Shown: positions 1-8,994, counted from the first letter of the stretch. The stretch: DNA of 59,472 nucleotides from Candidatus Kaiserbacteria bacterium (GCA_026396675.1 JAPLWI010000011.1:1-59472); one strand, 5' to 3'. Program-made: numbers and translations. Notes: a model not told the origin generated them from the letters alone.

Positions 1-426
1 GATGGCACGCTGGTCGTAAACTACTACGGTCTTATCGCCCCGATGATTCGTTCGATTCAAGAATTAGACGCCAACATGAAGCAATTGCAGGCCGCTGGGG
101 CGATTCTTAGCGTAGAAGCGGGTACCGATGCGCAATGTGTTGTGGGGGATACGAAATTGCGGAGAAGAAGGAAAGGAAAAGGAAACACACAAAGCGACGG
201 CAACGTCGGCATCGAATACGAAGAAATCGCGATTGCCGATGTTGCGGTTGGTGATGAAATTGCCTCGCTCGACGAGCGCACCGGTCGGGTCGTGTACTCG
301 CGCGTGAACGCGCTCTTGGACATGGGTGTGCAAGAAATATTTGAACTCAAAACCGCCTCCGGTCGCACTATCAGAACCACTGGAAATCATCCGTACCTTG
401 TTCGGGAAAGGGCGACATTGTCCTAA
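1..426 (+). CDS. 3' end of a large fibre/surface-like protein gene (5'-partial) terminating in an N-terminal split-intein (Hint) half
   Basis: Frame 1 is open from base 1 (DGTLVVNYYGLIAPMIRSIQELDANMKQLQAAG..., coiled-coil fibre/chaperone-like). From Cys codon 136-138 it carries intein block A (CVVGDTKL) and block B (TGNHPYLV). It stops 7 codons after block B, with no endonuclease domain and no C-terminal splicing blocks. Confidence 0.8.
   Translation, partial: DGTLVVNYYGLIAPMIRSIQELDANMKQLQAAGAILSVEAGTDAQCVVGDTKLRRRRKGKGNTQSDGNVGIEYEEIAIADVAVGDEIASLDERTGRVVYSRVNALLDMGVQEIFELKTASGRTIRTTGNHPYLVRERATLS
136..423 (+). other. Split-intein N fragment (IntN, about 96 aa)
   Basis: Cys1 followed by VVGDTKL (block A) and TGNHPYLV (block B, TxxH). 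The ORF ends where endonuclease domains are normally inserted. Confidence 0.75.
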
Positions 427-444
427 AACCTTATGCCGATTTTC

Positions 445-474
445 TTTACACTTGTCAAAAAAGATAGCATAAAA
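445..474 (+). promoter_or_regulatory. Candidate sigma70-type promoter for the intervening cassette
   Basis: TTTACA (445-450), 17-nt spacer, CATAAA, in the 150-nt gap before the NYN gene. Sequence match only. Confidence 0.3.
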
Positions 475-575
475 ATAGGTGATTTTATATCACAGATGCT
501 TATGGCAACTCCGAAAAACACCGAAACTCGTGAGATTTCCGGCACGGTTATTCGTGATATAGAAGCGAAAATTGT

Positions 576-1208
576 ATGAAAAAGCCCCGAGTCGGTGTAT
601 TTATTGATGCAGGGAATCTGTATCACACATCTGCTAGAATCGGATGGCGCATTGATTTCAGAAAATTGAGAAACTTGTTGTCTCATACTTGTGACCTATC
701 TTTCATTAACTACCATATTATTGTTCCGCGTGAGGATGATGTGAATTATGCAAAAACGCTCACACACATACAAAAGGCCTCCGCGGCATTTACGGTGTGT
801 CAAAAGCAGATGAAGTATATCTGGAGTGATGAAGAGAAAAGAGAGATAAAAAAAGGAGATATTGATGTTGATCTTGCGGTGGATGTCATAGAAAGGTTTG
901 AGAATGTGGACGCTATGATTGTCGTGAGCGGTGACAGTGATTATCTCGCGCTTGAAAAGTATGTAGCTGAGCGCGGGAAGCCCCTCATATTTATGGGTTA
1001 CAAAAAGAATATGGCGTGGGAACTCCGTCTTAAAAACCATATGTTTTTTGAATTGATTAGAGAGTGGGTAGAATACGGAATAACAACAAACCCCGACCTT
1101 TCGGCCGGGGCGACGTTAACAGGGTCAATTATAGCAAAGGCTATTTCTGAGTCAAGCATTTTGCCGGCGGGTGTGGATAACGATATCTCAGGCAGAAAAA
1201 GGATATGA
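576..1208 (+). CDS. NYN/LabA-like (PIN-fold) RNase-domain protein
   Basis: MKKPRVGVFIDAGNLY..., DIDVDLAVDVIE, MIVVSGDSDYLALEKYV: the acidic-residue pattern of NYN/LabA-like domains. Confidence 0.75.
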   Translation: MKKPRVGVFIDAGNLYHTSARIGWRIDFRKLRNLLSHTCDLSFINYHIIVPREDDVNYAKTLTHIQKASAAFTVCQKQMKYIWSDEEKREIKKGDIDVDLAVDVIERFENVDAMIVVSGDSDYLALEKYVAERGKPLIFMGYKKNMAWELRLKNHMFFELIREWVEYGITTNPDLSAGATLTGSIIAKAISESSILPAGVDNDISGRKRI

Positions 1209-1415
1209 AAAAATCTTCTGAACTTTCTGAACTGCAAACAAACAAATCCGACCTCGTTGCCGAGGCCGGATTGCTGGAAGCGCGCGTTCTTCCGAATAAA
1301 AATAAAAGTTGGCTCCAGCACGAAACTACATGGTTTCGCGCGATTGCGCGACGAAGCGGTTGTCAACCCGCGACGGCACTTGCTACAGAGTGCAAAGGAA
1401 TCATAGCATAATACT

Positions 1416-1862
1416 ATGGAAAAGAACTTTGACGGATGGAATGAGGTGAAAAAAATAACGCACACAGAGCATCCGCGCCTGTATACGGTTCGCGAGATAT
1501 GGTGGTGCAGACTTGGCGTGAATGTTGGTACAGAACAAGATGGGAAAGGAGAATGGTCTGTCCGGCCTTGTATTATTCTGCGAGGATTTGGTTCCGATGC
1601 TTGTTTGGTTGTGCCGCTCACGACATCAACTCGCGAACACCCGCTACGTGTCACTGTCGGTTTGGTTGAAGGACAAGAAGCGAGAGCCAACCTATCTCAA
1701 ATTCGTGTTGTAGATACTCGTCGTTTGGAGGAAAAGATCGGATTTCTTGAAACGAAAGCGTTTTCAAAATTACGAAAAGCCGCCAGAGATTTGTTCTCTG
1801 GCGGCTTTTCTGACTCTCTCCCCCTTGCGGGGGCAAGGCCGAAGCCAACTGTCCAAATATGA
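1416..1862 (+). CDS. PemK/MazF-family toxin-like endoribonuclease
   Basis: FDGWNEVKK...REIWWCRLGVNVGTEQDGKGEWSVRPCIILRGF...LVVPLTTS...ANLSQIRVVDTRRL matches the MazF/PemK SH3-like barrel signature. The 3' end of the ORF reads through a terminator-like hairpin (1779-1812). Confidence 0.75.
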   Translation: MEKNFDGWNEVKKITHTEHPRLYTVREIWWCRLGVNVGTEQDGKGEWSVRPCIILRGFGSDACLVVPLTTSTREHPLRVTVGLVEGQEARANLSQIRVVDTRRLEEKIGFLETKAFSKLRKAARDLFSGGFSDSLPLAGARPKPTVQI

Positions 1863-1865
1863 TAT

Positions 1866-3164
1866 ATGACCACAACTGAAAAGTCAATGAAGAAAAAGGG
1901 AGTTGTTGATAACTTATTGAAGAGGTTTTTCGGCGCCCCCGTGCCTGATGTTGTCTTTGCGCCTGCGGCAATTCCTGCGACTAAAGCGACGATGACGACA
2001 AAAACCGTATGTCCGTACTGCAATTCGAGTAATTTTGTCAGGCGCGGCATTCGACAGAAGAAGCACGAAGTCGTGCAACTTTATTTGTGCCGGAATTCGG
2101 AATGCGGTCGAACTTTCACAGCCGAAAGAGTGAAAGGAAAAAGATTCCCTCTACAAGTCATTCTGGAAGGCATCAGTTATTACAACTTGGGATTAACGCT
2201 GGAACAAACTTGTCATATCTTAAAAGAAAAATTCTCAAAAGATGAAAATATTTTAGCACCGACGCCAGCTACGCTGGCGTCGTGGGTGGAAGAATATAAG
2301 CCGATTTGCAGGTTTGAACGAATGCGCCCGTACGCCGTCAAATTATTTCCGCCGCAGAAGATGATCGAAGTGGTTACGATGGCGCACCGCCAACTTTATC
2401 GATTCCGATACCATCGTGCAAAAACGCTGTTGTCAATGGAAGAATTTAAAAATCGTCGTTTCGGTCGTCTGAAAGAATATTTGGATAATGTTTCTGCGGA
2501 GACACCGCATCAATATTTTCAAGACGGAGAGCGGATGAGCGAGATCAGGAGCAAATTCGACAAAACCGATATGATTATCAAAAGTAAATCAAATTTCGCC
2601 AACAAAACCGCCGAGTTCGTCTTGCGGAGCGTGCCGGATAATAACGCGCGGCATGAGGCGTTGCAACGCTTCATGATTGCAAACGACTCGGTGACGATAG
2701 CGACCGAGGTGCCGGTGTATATTCGGAAAGAAGATGTGGAGCATATGGAGAATGTGCTGAAGTTCAAAATCTTAGGTGAAGAGGGGCTACTGATTAAGGG
2801 ACATGCAGACAAAGCTAAGTCAAAATCGGCAGCGGGAAGCAAATCGTTTCCAAAACTCTTAACCGGTCACATTGACATTCTGCAAATCCGCAACGGTATG
2901 GTGCACATTCTTGACTACAAACCGAACGCGAGCAAGGAGAAGCCGATTGAACAGCTTACATGGTACGCGCTTGCGCTTTCGCGCCTGACCGGTCTGCGTT
3001 TGTTCGAATTCAAATGCGCGTGGTTTGACGACAAGGATTTCTACGAGTTCTATCCGCTGCATGTCGTTAAAAAATTGCAGATAAAAAAACGCGCGCGGAA
3101 AGTGCATTACAGAGACGGCAGTGTAGCGGAAATTCCGCGCCAGGACGTGTTTAAAGTCGCATAA
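1866..3164 (+). CDS. Zn-ribbon + HTH + RecB/Cas4-type PD-(D/E)XK nuclease (candidate free-standing homing endonuclease)
   Basis: The N-terminus has CPYCNSSNF...CRNSECGRTF (a four-Cys ribbon, IS1 InsA-like), followed by a putative HTH (ISYYNLGLTLEQTCHILKEKF). The C-terminus has GHIDIL ... ILDYKPN ... EQLTWYALAL, i.e. the D, D-x-K and QxxxY nuclease motifs. Confidence 0.65.
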   Translation: MTTTEKSMKKKGVVDNLLKRFFGAPVPDVVFAPAAIPATKATMTTKTVCPYCNSSNFVRRGIRQKKHEVVQLYLCRNSECGRTFTAERVKGKRFPLQVILEGISYYNLGLTLEQTCHILKEKFSKDENILAPTPATLASWVEEYKPICRFERMRPYAVKLFPPQKMIEVVTMAHRQLYRFRYHRAKTLLSMEEFKNRRFGRLKEYLDNVSAETPHQYFQDGERMSEIRSKFDKTDMIIKSKSNFANKTAEFVLRSVPDNNARHEALQRFMIANDSVTIATEVPVYIRKEDVEHMENVLKFKILGEEGLLIKGHADKAKSKSAAGSKSFPKLLTGHIDILQIRNGMVHILDYKPNASKEKPIEQLTWYALALSRLTGLRLFEFKCAWFDDKDFYEFYPLHVVKKLQIKKRARKVHYRDGSVAEIPRQDVFKVA

Positions 3165-3171
3165 ATAAAAT

Positions 3172-3651
3172 ATGCAAAACTACGCGCAATCAAAATATAA
3201 ATATCAGACCAACAAGGCGTTTACGCCGAGGAAGCCGGTCAAGACCTTCCGCGACCTGGACATTTATCAGCAGGCGATGAACTGTGCAGTCATTGTCGTG
3301 AAGAATATCCGGCCGAAATTGGTAACGCTCAAATACCCGTTTTTGGAAGGGCTAATGGACTGCACGATGACGGTGCCGCTTTCTATCGGCGAAGCACACT
3401 CTATCCGTTTCGGCGATTTCGCGAAGGGACTCGGTTTGATGGAAAAAGCAATGTCGGGGTGCAACAAGATGATTATCTATCTGGAACATATTAAAGGTAT
3501 GTACGGAGCAAAGGTTGATGCCGGTGTAATTGATGAGATTATCGCACGTTATGCCGAGACGCGGACCAAGGCATTTCATTTGGAATGTTCGTGGAAGAAA
3601 TGGGGGACCGCGCCGCGTGAGCGCGGCGCGTTGGGCGCAGTCAAGCTATAA
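3172..3651 (+). CDS. Four-helix-bundle protein (23S rRNA intervening-sequence protein family type)
   Basis: FRDLDIYQQAMNCAVIVVKNIRPK...FLEGLMDC...SIGEA resembles the characteristic F.DL.vyq.A opening and helical pattern of this family. Confidence 0.6.
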   Translation: MQNYAQSKYKYQTNKAFTPRKPVKTFRDLDIYQQAMNCAVIVVKNIRPKLVTLKYPFLEGLMDCTMTVPLSIGEAHSIRFGDFAKGLGLMEKAMSGCNKMIIYLEHIKGMYGAKVDAGVIDEIIARYAETRTKAFHLECSWKKWGTAPRERGALGAVKL

Positions 3652-3665
3652 TCATATATAAATGT

Positions 3666-3881
3666 ATGTTTCCATTTTTTAACAAAACAAAAGACGTTAA
3701 GGGGAAGTGGCGCAAAATTTCCGATTTGACACCTGGACTTGAAATCGCTGTTCCTTCCGAGAACGGAAATGTTGCTTGGGATGAAATAACTTCCATAAAA
3801 CCAGTTGGCCGCGAGCAGGTTTACGATATTGAGGTAGAGGGAACACACAACTTCGTCGGCGACGATATTTTTGCGCATAAC
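3666..3881 (+). other. Split-intein C fragment (IntC, about 72 aa; +1 Thr codon 3882-3884)
   Basis: Block F is VYDIEVEGTHNFV. Block G is IFAHN followed by Thr. Confidence 0.75.
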
Positions 3882-4973
3882 ACCTATGTCTTGAAGTCGG
3901 GCAATCTGTCGGCTAATGCTCCTTCCGATGTTTTGAATGCCGATGACAAGAGTGTTGATATTTATAAACTTGCAACTTACGCGCTGTCAGAAGAACAATC
4001 GCTTGCGGCTAAAGTGGATGCGGAGCAGACGGAAATGGTCTCGCTCGAAGCGCGCGTGGAAGCGCTGGAAACAGGATCCGTGTCATCCGGTGGCAACTTC
4101 GGCACGGGGACGCTCGGCACGGGGTTGGCGAACGCCTTGAACGGCTTCGGCGTATTAATACAAAAGGGCATCGCGCAATTTAATACGCTCGTATTCCAAC
4201 GGCTCGTCGCGGCGACTGATTCCACAGGTGCTTCCTCAGCTGGTTCTGTCAGCATCTTGACGGGAAATGTGGTTGCGCAGGTCACCAATTCATTGGTAAT
4301 GCCGTCCACGAAGGTCTTCATCACATTCAATTCGCAAATTACCGGAAGCTGGTGGGTGAGCGACAAAGCTACTGGCTCGTTCCGCGTTGTCCTCTCGACA
4401 CCGCAGGCCAGCGATGTCTCATTTGATTACTTTTTGGTTCAAACGGAAGGTCAAATTTCAACGAGTACGGCGGCTGTCAGCGATCAACAAACAAACAATA
4501 ATTCTTCCGTTACAACGGCACCGATTATTGTAGAAAACTCGAGTGCCGAAACATCCGATACAACGGCAACAACTACTGCGACTTCAACGCCGGAATCTTC
4601 AGACACCACTCCGCCGGTCGTGACACTCATTGGCGAGGCGGCGATACAGATAAATGTTGGTGGCACATTCACTGACCCCGGCGCAACTGCGACTGACCCA
4701 GTCGACGGTGATGTGACCTCGAAGATTGTGGTGACCGGTTCGGTCAATACGGCAACGCCCGGACTTTACACACTCACCTATTCAGCTTCGAATGCGGCAG
4801 GGAATACAGGCACCGTGTCGCGCGTTGTCACAGTCCTCGCACCTGCTGAAACTCCAGCCCCAGCCGATGGTTCGACAAACTCACCACCTGACGATACAAC
4901 CGCGCCGACTGAACCAGCAGCACCTGCTCCTGAAACACCCACCACTCCCGCTGTAGAAACACCAGTGGGTTGA
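3666..4973 (+). CDS. Split-intein C half fused to the C-extein of the fibre/surface protein (coiled coil, Thr/Ser-rich linker, Ig-like DUF5011-type module, Pro/Thr tail)
   Basis: It starts with ...GREQVYDIEVEGTHNFVGDDIFAHN|T (intein blocks F and G, with +1 Thr). The extein follows with LEARVEALETGS coiled coil and TPPVVTLIGEAAIQINVGGTFTDPGATATDPVDGDVT...YTLTYSASNAAGN (Ig-like). Confidence 0.8.
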   Translation: MFPFFNKTKDVKGKWRKISDLTPGLEIAVPSENGNVAWDEITSIKPVGREQVYDIEVEGTHNFVGDDIFAHNTYVLKSGNLSANAPSDVLNADDKSVDIYKLATYALSEEQSLAAKVDAEQTEMVSLEARVEALETGSVSSGGNFGTGTLGTGLANALNGFGVLIQKGIAQFNTLVFQRLVAATDSTGASSAGSVSILTGNVVAQVTNSLVMPSTKVFITFNSQITGSWWVSDKATGSFRVVLSTPQASDVSFDYFLVQTEGQISTSTAAVSDQQTNNNSSVTTAPIIVENSSAETSDTTATTTATSTPESSDTTPPVVTLIGEAAIQINVGGTFTDPGATATDPVDGDVTSKIVVTGSVNTATPGLYTLTYSASNAAGNTGTVSRVVTVLAPAETPAPADGSTNSPPDDTTAPTEPAAPAPETPTTPAVETPVG

Positions 4974-4976
4974 ATC

Positions 4977-5063
4977 GTGTCCAACATGTCCAACACCGAG
5001 TGTCCGACAATGCCCGACACATTGTAAACAACATGTCCAACACTCGGTGTTGGACATGTTTGG
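4977..5063. repeat. REP doublet downstream of the RAYT gene
   Basis: A perfect hairpin ACATGTCCAACAC-TCG-GTGTTGGACATGT lies at 5031-5059. A degenerate inverted unit GTCCAACACCGAGTGTCCGAC lies at 4988-5008. Confidence 0.85.
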
Positions 5064-5071
5064 GCGGCAAC

Positions 5072-5731
5072 TTAAAGTTCTAAAACCTCACCGAGTGTTT
5101 TGGCAATACTCGTTCGCACAAACATTTCATATTCGCTTGCCGTTTTGAATTGCCCCAAGACCACTTCCGTGGAAAGTAACTTATCCCAACGACTTTTATC
5201 GATGTAGTCCTGGTAACTAGACCACTCGTATTTTTGTTCATTACTTTTCCATTGTTGCAAACCTCTTACATTGCGATGAATGTAAGTCGAGAGGTAAAGC
5301 AATTGATCGTCGTCTTCTATATGAATAGCTCTATATGGTCCTTGAAATAAGTGTCCGGACACTCTGTATCTCGTGTTGTAATACTTTGTATAACCATTTA
5401 AAACGCGTTGCATATATCGTGCGATGCCATTTTCTTGAGTTTCTTTAAGAATAAGATGAAAATGATTCGGCATGAGACAGAACGCGGTAAGTTCCACATA
5501 CCGATTCTTAATGATTTTCGTAACATCCTCCGCACCAATGTCGAACACTCGGTGTTGGACAAAACGACGCACACGGCGGGAAATTTGATCAAAAACAATA
5601 TCGGATTGGAAAAATAAAATTAAAAAGAGGAATCGAGAATAATCCGAGGTATCATGAAAAATAATTTTCTTCTGTGTACCGCGATTGTACACGTGATAAT
5701 ACTCACCAATGCTTATTTGAACATTTCGCAT
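5072..5731 (-). CDS. REP-associated tyrosine transposase (RAYT; IS200/IS605-type Y1 HUH transposase)
   Basis: YHVYNRGTQKKIIF N-terminus, HUH motif PNHFHLIL and catalytic Tyr motif STYIHRN. The gene is flanked on both sides by REP hairpins. Confidence 0.85.
   Translation of the reverse strand: MRNVQISIGEYYHVYNRGTQKKIIFHDTSDYSRFLFLILFFQSDIVFDQISRRVRRFVQHRVFDIGAEDVTKIIKNRYVELTAFCLMPNHFHLILKETQENGIARYMQRVLNGYTKYYNTRYRVSGHLFQGPYRAIHIEDDDQLLYLSTYIHRNVRGLQQWKSNEQKYEWSSYQDYIDKSRWDKLLSTEVVLGQFKTASEYEMFVRTSIAKTLGEVLEL
5538..5563. repeat. REP unit inside the RAYT coding sequence
   Basis: ATGTCGAACACTCGGTGTTGGACAA, translated on the minus strand as ...FVQHRVFDIG... Confidence 0.8.
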
Positions 5732-5763: not shown

Positions 5764-5790
5764 TGTCCAACACTCGGTGTTGGACATGTT
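5764..5790. repeat. REP unit between the RAYT start and gap
   Basis: TGTCCAACACTCGGTGTTGGACATGTT, with 9-bp arms and a TCG loop. Confidence 0.85.
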
Positions 5791-8121: not shown

Positions 8122-8994
8122 ATGCCGCCTGCGGATGCGAAAATAAAAGAACTTAAAGAAAAAGCGAGATTAATTCGCGAGACGGTTATTCGAATGCTCA
8201 CAACAGCAGGCAGTGGGCACACTGCCGGTTCCTTGGGCATGGCGGATATTTTTGCCGCATTCTATTTTCATATTTTAAAGCATGATCCGAAGAATCCGGA
8301 GTGGGAAGAACGCGACCGACTTATCCTTTCAAACGGACACATTTGTCCTGCATTGTATGCAGCGATGGCACACTCCGGTTATTTTCCTGTTGAAGAATGT
8401 TTAACTCTGTGTAAATTTGGCAGTCGGCTCCAAGGACATCCAGAACGCCTACGATTGCCCGGTATTGAAACAACTTCTGGGCCGCTCGGTGAAGGTCTCT
8501 CGCAAGCCGCCGGTATGGCGCTTGCGCTCCGTATGGGTATATGTCGAACACTCGGTGTTGAACACGCATGTCAAACACCGAGTGTTCGACACGAAAAACG
8601 AATTTATTGCGTGATGAGTGACGGCGAACAAGATGAGGGGAATACTTGGGAAGCAGTGATGTTCGCTGGGAAAAATAAATTGTCGAACCTTACGGCGATT
8701 ATTGATCGCAATGGTATTCAAATAGATGGAATGACTGAAGAGGTAATGCCACTAGAGCCGCTCGCGGACAAGTACCGCGCATTCAACTGGAATGTGCTTG
8801 AAGTGGACGGCAATGATATCTCCGCATTTGTCGTTGCGGTTGATGAGGCAAAAGCAAGTGAGAAACCGACTCTAATTATTGCGCACACCATTCCTGGCAA
8901 AGGCGTGCAAGAAATTGAGAATGATTATCACTGGCACGGGAAAGTTCCGACAAAAGAAGAATGCGAGCGGTTTATTAAATATTTAAACATTTAA
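8122..8994 (+). CDS. tkt: Transketolase, N-terminal (ThDP-binding) subunit, carrying an in-frame REP doublet
   Basis: TTAGSGHTAGSLGMADIFAAFYF, LILSNGHICPALYA, SDGEQDEGNTWEA. ATG 8122 is preferred over the TTG at 8101. Confidence 0.92.
   Translation: MPPADAKIKELKEKARLIRETVIRMLTTAGSGHTAGSLGMADIFAAFYFHILKHDPKNPEWEERDRLILSNGHICPALYAAMAHSGYFPVEECLTLCKFGSRLQGHPERLRLPGIETTSGPLGEGLSQAAGMALALRMGICRTLGVEHACQTPSVRHEKRIYCVMSDGEQDEGNTWEAVMFAGKNKLSNLTAIIDRNGIQIDGMTEEVMPLEPLADKYRAFNWNVLEVDGNDISAFVVAVDEAKASEKPTLIIAHTIPGKGVQEIENDYHWHGKVPTKEECERFIKYLNI
8541..8592. repeat. Inverted REP doublet inserted in frame in tktN
   Basis: TGTCGAACACTCGGTGTTGAACA (8542-8564) and TGTCAAACACCGAGTGTTCGACA (8569-8591). Same unit as at the RAYT locus. 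Confidence 0.85.

Follow-up and report, generated by a model that had tools for sequence, protein, structure and literature searches.

The first genes of a 59,472-bp contig of Candidatus Kaiserbacteria (GCA_026396675.1, JAPLWI010000011.1:1-59472), which in its entirety is referred to here as the window, comprise the two halves of an intein and, between them, a cassette of five open reading frames (ORFs) on the same strand. The arrangement is probably that of a working split intein that fractures the 3' part of a giant, tail-fiber-like surface-protein gene, together with a homing-type cassette of a nuclease and its 159-amino-acid (aa) partner, P159. The host genome belongs to the Patescibacteria and is Paceibacteria/Kaiserbacteria-like. 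Patescibacteria, for which another name is Candidate Phyla Radiation (CPR), are ultra-small bacteria and are described here as episymbiotic.

Two intein halves in one surface-protein gene

The ORF that runs off the start of the window stops at 424-426. Its translation ends ...QAAGAILSVEAGTDAQ/CVVGDTKLRRRRKGKG...RTIRTTGNHPYLVRERATLS, followed by the stop (in short form ...EAGTDAQ/CVVGDTKL...TTGNHPYLVRERATLS; the slash marks the splice junction), and its Cys1 codon lies directly after ...TDAQ. The ORF at 3666-4973 opens with MFPFFNKTKDVKGKWRKISDL...EQVYDIEVEGTHNFVGDDIFAHN/TYVLKSG, more fully MFPFFNKTKDVKGKWRKISDLTPGLEIAVPSENGNVAWDEITSIKPVGREQVYDIEVEGTHNFVGDDIFAHN/TYVLKSG, and has its +1 Thr at 3882-3884. 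These two ORFs contain the following features.

1-135, + strand: 3' end of the N-extein, comprising the final 45 codons of the giant surface-protein gene, ending in a Peptidase_S74-type intramolecular-chaperone domain.
136-426, + strand: intein N half (IntN), in which Cys1 (136-138) is followed by a poly-basic loop, then block B (TTGNHPYLV) and a tail of 7 residues up to the TAA stop.
3666-3881, + strand: intein C half (IntC), 72 aa, with a GKWRKISDL...EIAVP strand, block F (VYDIEVEGTHNF) and block G (AHN).
3882-4973, + strand: C-extein, with the +1 Thr, a partial S74-like segment, a coiled coil, a beta-domain (...GSWWVSDKATGSFRVVLS...), a Thr/Ser linker, an Ig-like domain and a P/T/A-rich tail.

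The original prediction had placed intein halves at these positions, and both scored above the curated cut-offs of profile hidden Markov models. IntN matched TIGR01445 (intein_Nterm) with 28.4 bits (cut-off, 24.5) and DnaB-intein models as well, and IntC matched TIGR01443 (intein_Cterm) with 31.9 bits (cut-off, 15.6) and PF14890 with 37.0 bits (cut-off, 35.8). When IntN and IntC were fused in silico, the chain aligned over blocks B to G with the Npu DnaB mini-intein 4o1r at an E value of 2e-17; the support for a single HINT fold consists of such sequence alignment to solved mini-inteins only.

Conservation was assessed in 11 orthologues for IntN and in more than 20 loci for IntC. Cys1 was invariant in all 11 IntN sequences, the Thr and His of block B (TxxH), which align with block B of 4o1r, were kept throughout, and the stop codon lay 5 to 14 residues past block B. 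The nearest relatives of the N half (57 to 78% identity) are Peptidase_S74 plus Hint proteins that all end within this same interval; in the relatives P0003, P0004, and P0006, PF13884 is followed by Hint. Complete N halves in relatives range from 1,157 to more than 4,400 aa. For IntC, block F and the FAHN/T motif were invariant in the more than 20 loci, and the Asp, THNF and HN/T were kept by all orthologues, so that every IntN and IntC in the orthologue alignments retains all of the catalytic residues. The start Met of IntC is likewise conserved in all loci, 10 to 15 residues ahead of a G-W-x-K-V-S-x-L strand.

Halves of this kind might conceivably not splice at all, acting instead as a high-affinity, noncovalent docking pair or, as in bacterial intein-like (BIL) domains, as a site of single-sided cleavage, with a complex or separately released fragments as the outcome. 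Purifying selection would be equally expected in that case, the split site is noncanonical, weak matches to PT-HINT were obtained, and BIL domains have their niche in variable surface proteins such as the hosts here. Divergent orthologues nevertheless share every residue of the four-step splicing reaction without change, the +1 Thr and the penultimate His-Asn among them, and true DnaB-type inteins and the TIGR intein models give the best matches, which makes a nonsplicing pair quite unlikely.

Intein-free relatives of the host protein were sought and found, with S74, coil and Ig-like domain in one chain: in locus L063, a single ORF of 1,549 codons spans S74, the coiled/linker region and the Ig-like domain without a break. 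The window protein spliced in silico aligned with an intein-free stretch of L028 at 47% identity over query residues 18 to 315, with the junction at residue 45, and the product of L018, spliced in the same way, aligned with L005 at 50% identity over 600 residues across the junction. Because the intein-free relatives have a contiguous S74-coil-Ig-like order and the spliced products align across the junction, the two ORFs are parts of one ancestral protein that carry the complementary halves of one intein.

The Ig-like domain matched PF16403, a bacterial surface Ig-like family, with 86 bits (aa 320 to 390, about 4623-4835). The start of the C-extein (3882-4030) is a partial duplicate of the end of the S74 domain (...APSDVLNADDKSVDIYKLATYAL...), although the N-extein already ends in a complete S74 domain. 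Behind the conserved IntC, the architecture of the C-extein differs by locus, consisting of the tail only, of a partial S74 plus tail, or of repeats, a full S74 and the tail, which hints at recombination at the intein or the cassette. A scan for sigma-70 promoters upstream of the C half gave nothing convincing.

A poly-basic loop, KLRRRRKGKG (154-183; aa 52 to 61 of the N-half fragment), lies right after block A. It is present in every IntN of the family, in variants such as RRRRK, RRKKK, and RRRRRKKGK, and it could provide electrostatic pairing with IntC or contact nucleic acid.

Position of the break

In alignments with the mini-inteins 4o1r and 1mi8, the canonical endonuclease insertion point (AVPSENG/NVAWDEI) was uninterrupted in the window IntC, as it is in a mini-intein. 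The break consists of 17 residues that interrupt the hairpin right after block B, about 20 residues (one beta-hairpin) upstream of the canonical site, and the earlier view that it lies exactly where homing-endonuclease domains sit had to be abandoned. Its position is instead the nested-domain site of this intein family, because relatives either nest an NYN domain in frame there or fuse IntN to the nuclease.

Contiguous inteins with an NYN (PIN-like) domain nested in frame just past block B were found at L063:11-4657, at L100:1-4402, and in P0010 (L098:2524-3174). All three occupy another extein site (...GH/C ... HN/TY...), and in L100 a contiguous NYN-intein and a terminal split intein occur within one giant gene. 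The NYN gene of the window had been taken for simple cargo, a description that these in-frame domains at the same position do not fit. Full-text searches gave no paper joining an intein with an NYN domain, and we found no report of NYN nested in inteins.

In four other loci (L032:2-2854, L042:1-2124, L045:2-1813, and L046:1-1998), the IntN ORF continues in frame through a linker of about 60 residues into the Zn-ribbon/PD-(D/E)XK nuclease, with P159 and IntC encoded by separate genes. Judged from its sequence, such a fusion seems intermediate between an endonuclease that is nested and one that is free-standing.

Recurrence of the split and selection on both halves

The C half was identical in four independent Logan assemblies from different runs, which also share its junction with the cassette, and the assembly of L001 covers the cassette from the end of IntN to past the C half. 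The same break was found in other lineages, so that the window is not a unique case but one member of an arrangement widespread in Patescibacteria. In L005, the order is N half, a 52-aa ORF, Bro-N, a 450-aa ORF, a 155-aa ORF and C half, and the locus is syntenic with the window through the Y1 transposase, GAPDH and RpiB genes. L006, also from Candidatus Kaiserbacteria, has N half, Bro-N, PemK, ORFs of 443 and 154 aa, and C half, while L008 to L011 have an N half of 4,407 aa followed by NYN, the nuclease, a 156-aa ORF and the C half. In L016, an N half of 1,157 aa is followed by the nuclease, a 157-aa ORF, the C half and, downstream of it, NYN and PemK. L100 and L101 also share the break. Dozens of independent assemblies have this layout, a recurrence well in excess of chance.

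A scan of the GTDB species representatives for the cassette nuclease gave 337 loci, and the 80 of these that were fetched form the basis of the counts of intein and nonintein contexts. The cassette was embedded in an intein in 17 of the 80, concentrated among the closest relatives of the window nuclease. A search with the C half returned about 70 distinct clusters of stand-alone proteins of 420 to 730 aa with intein-C plus Ig-like domains, and no giant cis-spliced version of this site.

In pairwise comparisons with the window, the overall rate of nonsynonymous substitution (dN) was 0.12 to 0.41 and that of synonymous substitution (dS) was at least 1.1 or saturated, giving dN/dS ratios of about 0.09 to 0.25 where these are defined. 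For IntN alone, dN/dS was 0.09 to 0.25; for IntC, dN was 0.12 to 0.29 with dS saturated. Both halves are, by this measure, under selection after the split.

These values bear on the alternative that an ordinary insertion has left a decaying pseudogene, or that the locus is an assembly chimera. The cassette family does occur outside inteins, the contig begins within the gene, and one related locus, L099, is broken into many short ORFs. Decay after a disruptive insertion is, however, incompatible with the low dN, the low dN/dS and the saturated dS, which also show that the orthologous halves are not recent identical copies; the same break recurs in many lineages with ORFs and catalytic residues intact, the Met start before the IntC strand is conserved, and the junction is present in the independent assemblies. 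Both the pseudogene and the misassembly are rejected as highly improbable. The locus just mentioned (L099:1-12119) shares synteny with the window, its downstream genes being those for GAPDH, RpiB, Rpe and transketolase, and the fragmentation into short ORFs affects giant gene, intein halves and cassette alike; it represents either a decaying copy or a frameshift-rich long-read assembly.

Genes of the cassette

Between the halves lie five ORFs on the same strand, separated by gaps of 3 to 14 nt or overlapping by 4 nt.

576-1208, + strand: free-standing NYN (PIN-like) nuclease gene; PF01936, 70 bits, with the FID, DVD and GDSD acidic motifs intact.
1205-1411, + strand: 68-aa ORF, overlapping the NYN stop (ATGA, 4 nt) and ending 4 nt before PemK.
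1416-1862, + strand: PemK/MazF-like toxin gene; PF02452, 49.7 bits (cut-off, 23.1), and PHROG MazF-like, 9.6e-12.
1866-3164, + strand: 432-aa predicted nuclease, with a 4-Cys Zn ribbon, a helical, helix-turn-helix (HTH)-like middle and a C-terminal RecB/Cas4-type PD-(D/E)XK domain.
3172-3651, + strand: P159, a putative divergent member of the 23S rRNA intervening-sequence (IVS)-type four-helix-bundle family.

The original prediction had counted four genes. The NYN, PemK, nuclease and four-helix-bundle genes that it named are all present, and with the 68-aa ORF the number becomes five. No strong + strand terminator-like hairpin was found at the locus, where the scan gave only five weak matches of 5 to 7 bp, and the cassette is probably cotranscribed.

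In the nuclease, the Zn-ribbon residues C49, C52, C75 and C80 and the RecB/Cas4-type PD-(D/E)XK signature (GHID337, D350-Y-K352, Q363...Y367) were invariant in an alignment of 25 sequences. The N terminus matched NF050000, an IS1/IS1595-type Zn ribbon, with 30 bits (cut-off, 28); the protein matched the PADLOC Cas4-like profile at 4e-4, and several of its relatives carry PF12705 in precomputed annotation. As the original prediction proposed, this protein appears to be the best candidate for the mobility nuclease.

P159 of the window itself had no profile match, and 14 of 19 members of its family matched PF05635 (best E value, 2e-5), so that the initial guess of an rRNA-IVS-type four-helix bundle has support at the family level. 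Searches of PDB with profiles of the nuclease and P159 returned nothing useful, and P159 had no PDB match.

The NYN protein matched the PADLOC NYN profile at 1.5e-8. The 68-aa ORF had no match above threshold in Pfam or NCBIfam and none to an antitoxin family; it has homologues at the same position in L019 and L023 and is a possible candidate antitoxin for PemK. Two hairpins were noted within coding sequence: a perfect 16-bp hairpin (repeat I7) at 1774-1810, in the 3' end of the PemK ORF, and an 8-bp GC hairpin, GCGCCGCG-tgag-CGCGGCGC, at 3610-3629, within the P159 ORF at its 3' end, a short distance upstream of where the C half starts.

Distribution of the nuclease and P159

The nuclease family has more than 1,811 proteins in Kaiser-, Moran-, Nomura-, Taylor-, Doudna-, Yanofsky-, Zambryski-, and Sungii-bacteria, Minisyncoccia and Paceibacterota. 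Its distribution is sporadic and its interclass identity is very high, at 60 to 86% across host groups. A P159 gene follows the nuclease gene in about 89 of the 94 loci in which the pairing was counted, and for this reason P159 is a near-obligate partner of the nuclease and not the cargo that it was first thought to be.

Where an IntN and an IntC flank the cassette, the order of genes always ends with the nuclease and then P159, and the insert is 1.77 to 3.4 kb long. To this core, NYN, PemK, Bro-N and the 68-aa ORF are added variably, and they are at times found outside the intein, downstream of the C half. Outside inteins, which is where about three-quarters of the species-level loci have it, at least 27 further loci have the cassette directly behind the stop codon of a giant S74/Ig-like gene, and in 9 more it lies behind a gene with the same P/T/A/E-rich tail; other contexts account for only 8 or 9. 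Occurrence at nonintein sites, which the original prediction equated with plain disruptive insertion, is therefore real, but the equation does not follow, because these sites lie directly 3' of the stop codons of homologous giant S74/Ig-like genes. Broken copies of the nuclease or P159 occur in L039, L068, and L026, and together with the sporadic distribution and high identity of the family they fit a selfish element.

The strict address could also be read in another way, with the nuclease and P159 as a previously unrecognized, nonselfish system for the 3' ends of giant genes, which might, for example, make targeted breaks that drive the exchange of C-terminal modules, the split intein joining interchangeable tips to one stalk. 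Consistent with this are the near-constant location of the cassette, in loci with and without an intein, at the 3' end of a giant S74/Ig-like gene, a nuclease that is more conserved than the surface proteins, the variable C-extein architecture behind a conserved IntC, the membership of the partner in the PF05635 four-helix-bundle family, and the DNA element with three repeats at the cassette edge. The ORFs of the cassette include, however, no reverse transcriptase, recombinase or silent-cassette array, there is usually one IntC per locus, copies of the nuclease or P159 are degenerate, the 337 loci are patchily distributed among the GTDB species representatives, and the accompanying toxin and RNase genes are typical of mobile or defense islands. 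We consider such a system unlikely, if less so than the other alternatives.

Two further origins were rejected. A phage-borne origin, as for most of the fractured genes described by Dassa et al., finds no place because the nuclease was not found in IMG/VR contigs. Insertion of an IS1-like insertion sequence (IS) was set aside in the absence of terminal inverted repeats and a target-site duplication; only the Zn-ribbon N terminus resembles IS1/IS1595 proteins.

Downstream of the C-extein, on the - strand, is an IS200/RAYT (REP-associated tyrosine transposase)-like Y1 transposase gene (5072-5731). It is flanked by palindromes, TGTCCAACAC-tcg-GTGTTGGACA, that resemble repetitive extragenic palindromes (REP), with one copy inside the gene. 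Sites of the REP-like palindrome are at 4978-5060, 5539-5561, 5764-5786, and 8542-8591 of the window, with 12 half-site matches against 2.5 expected. A Y1 gene adjoins P159 in L063, L073, L077, L079, L088, and L090 too.

Conserved DNA element

At the 5' edge of the cassette is the following feature.

484-561, + strand: conserved DNA element of about 75 to 85 nt with three CGTGAT-type motif copies, one inverted and two direct.

The motifs are TATATCACa (487-495, inverted), TCGTGAGAT (528-536), and TCGTGATAT (552-560), and the general form of the element is TATATCACG-N~30-TCGTGAGAT-N~15-TCGTGATAT. An apparent sixth ORF at 433-579, with translated matches in 32 loci, is not a gene but this element read as protein. 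Aligned as DNA, the element was found in 27 distinct loci (among them L005, L008, L018, L024 to L026, L037, and L047), upstream of the cassette's first gene, in loci with an intein as well as in those lacking one, and it is kept even where it is translated as the linker between IntN and the nuclease. A structured RNA was considered and rejected; there was no covariation, the consensus energy was -2.75 kcal/mol, and Rfam gave no match. Given the lack of covariation and of an Rfam match, the element is treated as a cluster of DNA motifs. It could be a set of protein-binding repeats that acts as operator, recognition site or end of an element, with the Zn-ribbon/HTH region of the nuclease as a possible binding partner.

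Proposed mechanism

In the mechanism that we propose, the upstream gene would encode a giant N-extein ending in the Peptidase_S74 chaperone domain and fused to IntN, and the downstream gene would encode IntC fused to the coil, the beta-domain and the Ig-like tail. The two intein halves would associate into one HINT fold, in which Cys1, the block-B Thr and His, the block-F Asp, the terminal His-Asn and the +1 Thr would perform protein trans-splicing. The product, ...EAGTDAQ-TYVLKSG..., would have the same architecture as the uninterrupted relatives. The constant core of the cassette is the Zn-ribbon/HTH/PD-(D/E)XK nuclease and its four-helix partner behind the conserved DNA element, with NYN, the 68-aa ORF and PemK exchangeable. 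Most likely, the nuclease/P159 pair is a selfish homing-type module specialized for the 3' ends of this gene family, which would usually settle just past the stop codon and sometimes enter the intein at its nested-domain site. There the intein would act as a safe harbor, the host being spared since a split intein still rejoins the protein.

Several observations weigh against this mechanism. Some concern the intein and its host protein. The N-extein is truncated, by the contig end and not by biology; the split site, right after block B and with an IntC of 72 aa, is unusual; and a single-sequence AlphaFold2 model of the fused IntN and IntC, made without an alignment, had a pLDDT of 40. The splice junction is not seamless relative to intein-free relatives, as there are about 15 extra residues and the C-extein starts inside the partial S74-like segment. 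No contiguous cis-intein allele at this S74 site was present among 120 C-half homologues, contiguous inteins of the family having been found only at another extein site (L063 and L100). Others concern the homing module: the nuclease scored 20.7 bits against PF12705, below the cut-off of 22, and its AlphaFold2 model, based on the 25-sequence alignment, was poor (pLDDT, 55); most nuclease/P159 copies lie outside inteins; neither terminal inverted repeats nor a target-site duplication was found around 427-3665; and no pair of empty and filled sites demonstrating homing was found.

Comparison with known systems

In the fractured genes described by Dassa et al. (2009; PMC2677866), one free-standing GIY-YIG, HNH or Vsr-like gene separates the halves of a split intein, and the hosts are DNA-metabolism enzymes, mostly of phage. 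As in those genes, one gene of the window has become two co-oriented ORFs at one locus, whose broken ends carry the intein halves and enclose a free-standing nuclease gene; members of the nuclease family are likewise found outside inteins, and apparent control elements accompany the insert. In contrast to them, the insert is multigenic, its five ORFs including an obligate nuclease and four-helix pair with swappable NYN, PemK and Bro-N genes in the family; the nuclease is of the Zn-ribbon/HTH/RecB-Cas4-type PD-(D/E)XK kind and not GIY-YIG, HNH or Vsr-like; and the intein is hosted by a giant, cellular surface protein from Patescibacteria, with a nuclease that is absent from IMG/VR. The split right after block B and the relatives with in-frame IntN-nuclease or IntN-NYN-IntC chains are further differences.

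With the natural split inteins (the DnaE inteins Npu and Ssp and the metagenomic gp41-1, NrdJ-1, and IMPDH-1), the window intein shares class 1 chemistry (Cys1...His-Asn and a +1 nucleophile), separately translated halves and DnaB/DnaE-type HINT blocks. Its halves are adjacent, whereas those of DnaE are dispersed, and its IntC has 72 aa compared with about 35 to 40, the greater length being due to a break that precedes the G-W-x-K...AVP hairpin. The +1 Thr and the conserved poly-Arg/Lys loop after block A also set it apart.

BIL and pretoxin-HINT (PT-HINT) domains are likewise HINT domains in large, variable secreted or surface proteins, and the window sequences have weak PT-HINT matches; unlike those domains, they pass the intein N- and C-terminal models, have an invariant +1 Thr, are split, and are accompanied by nested or free-standing nuclease genes. 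P159 resembles the 23S rRNA IVS proteins (PF05635) in being small, helical and encoded inside an intervening or mobile sequence. It differs from them in its strong divergence, its pairing with a PD-(D/E)XK nuclease and the lack of an rRNA context, and no reverse transcriptase was found in the cassette.

Full-text literature searches found no paper on inteins in surface proteins of CPR/Patescibacteria, and no described counterpart of the locus was found in the searched literature, in line with what had been supposed at the outset. The arrangement is apparently an undescribed variant of the fractured-gene concept, the concept itself being established.

Implications

Should the halves splice, they would represent a new family of natural split inteins with an unusual split (after block B, with a 72-aa IntC and Cys1/Thr+1 chemistry) and dozens of diverged, presumably orthogonal pairs that would be useful for protein ligation tools. 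The analysis also defines a large, highly conserved and unannotated pair of a nuclease and a four-helix-bundle protein, whose genomic address is strict and whose DNA element is conserved. Dassa et al. raised the open question of how inteins are entered and broken by nucleases, and the graded arrangements found here, from a nested NYN domain through a fused IntN-nuclease to a free-standing cassette, look like intermediates of nuclease entry and intein breakage. If the module-exchange reading were true, intein fracture would be exploited for modular surface variation and not merely tolerated. If the halves do splice, fractured genes would extend from phage replication enzymes to the giant surface proteins of ultra-small episymbiotic bacteria.

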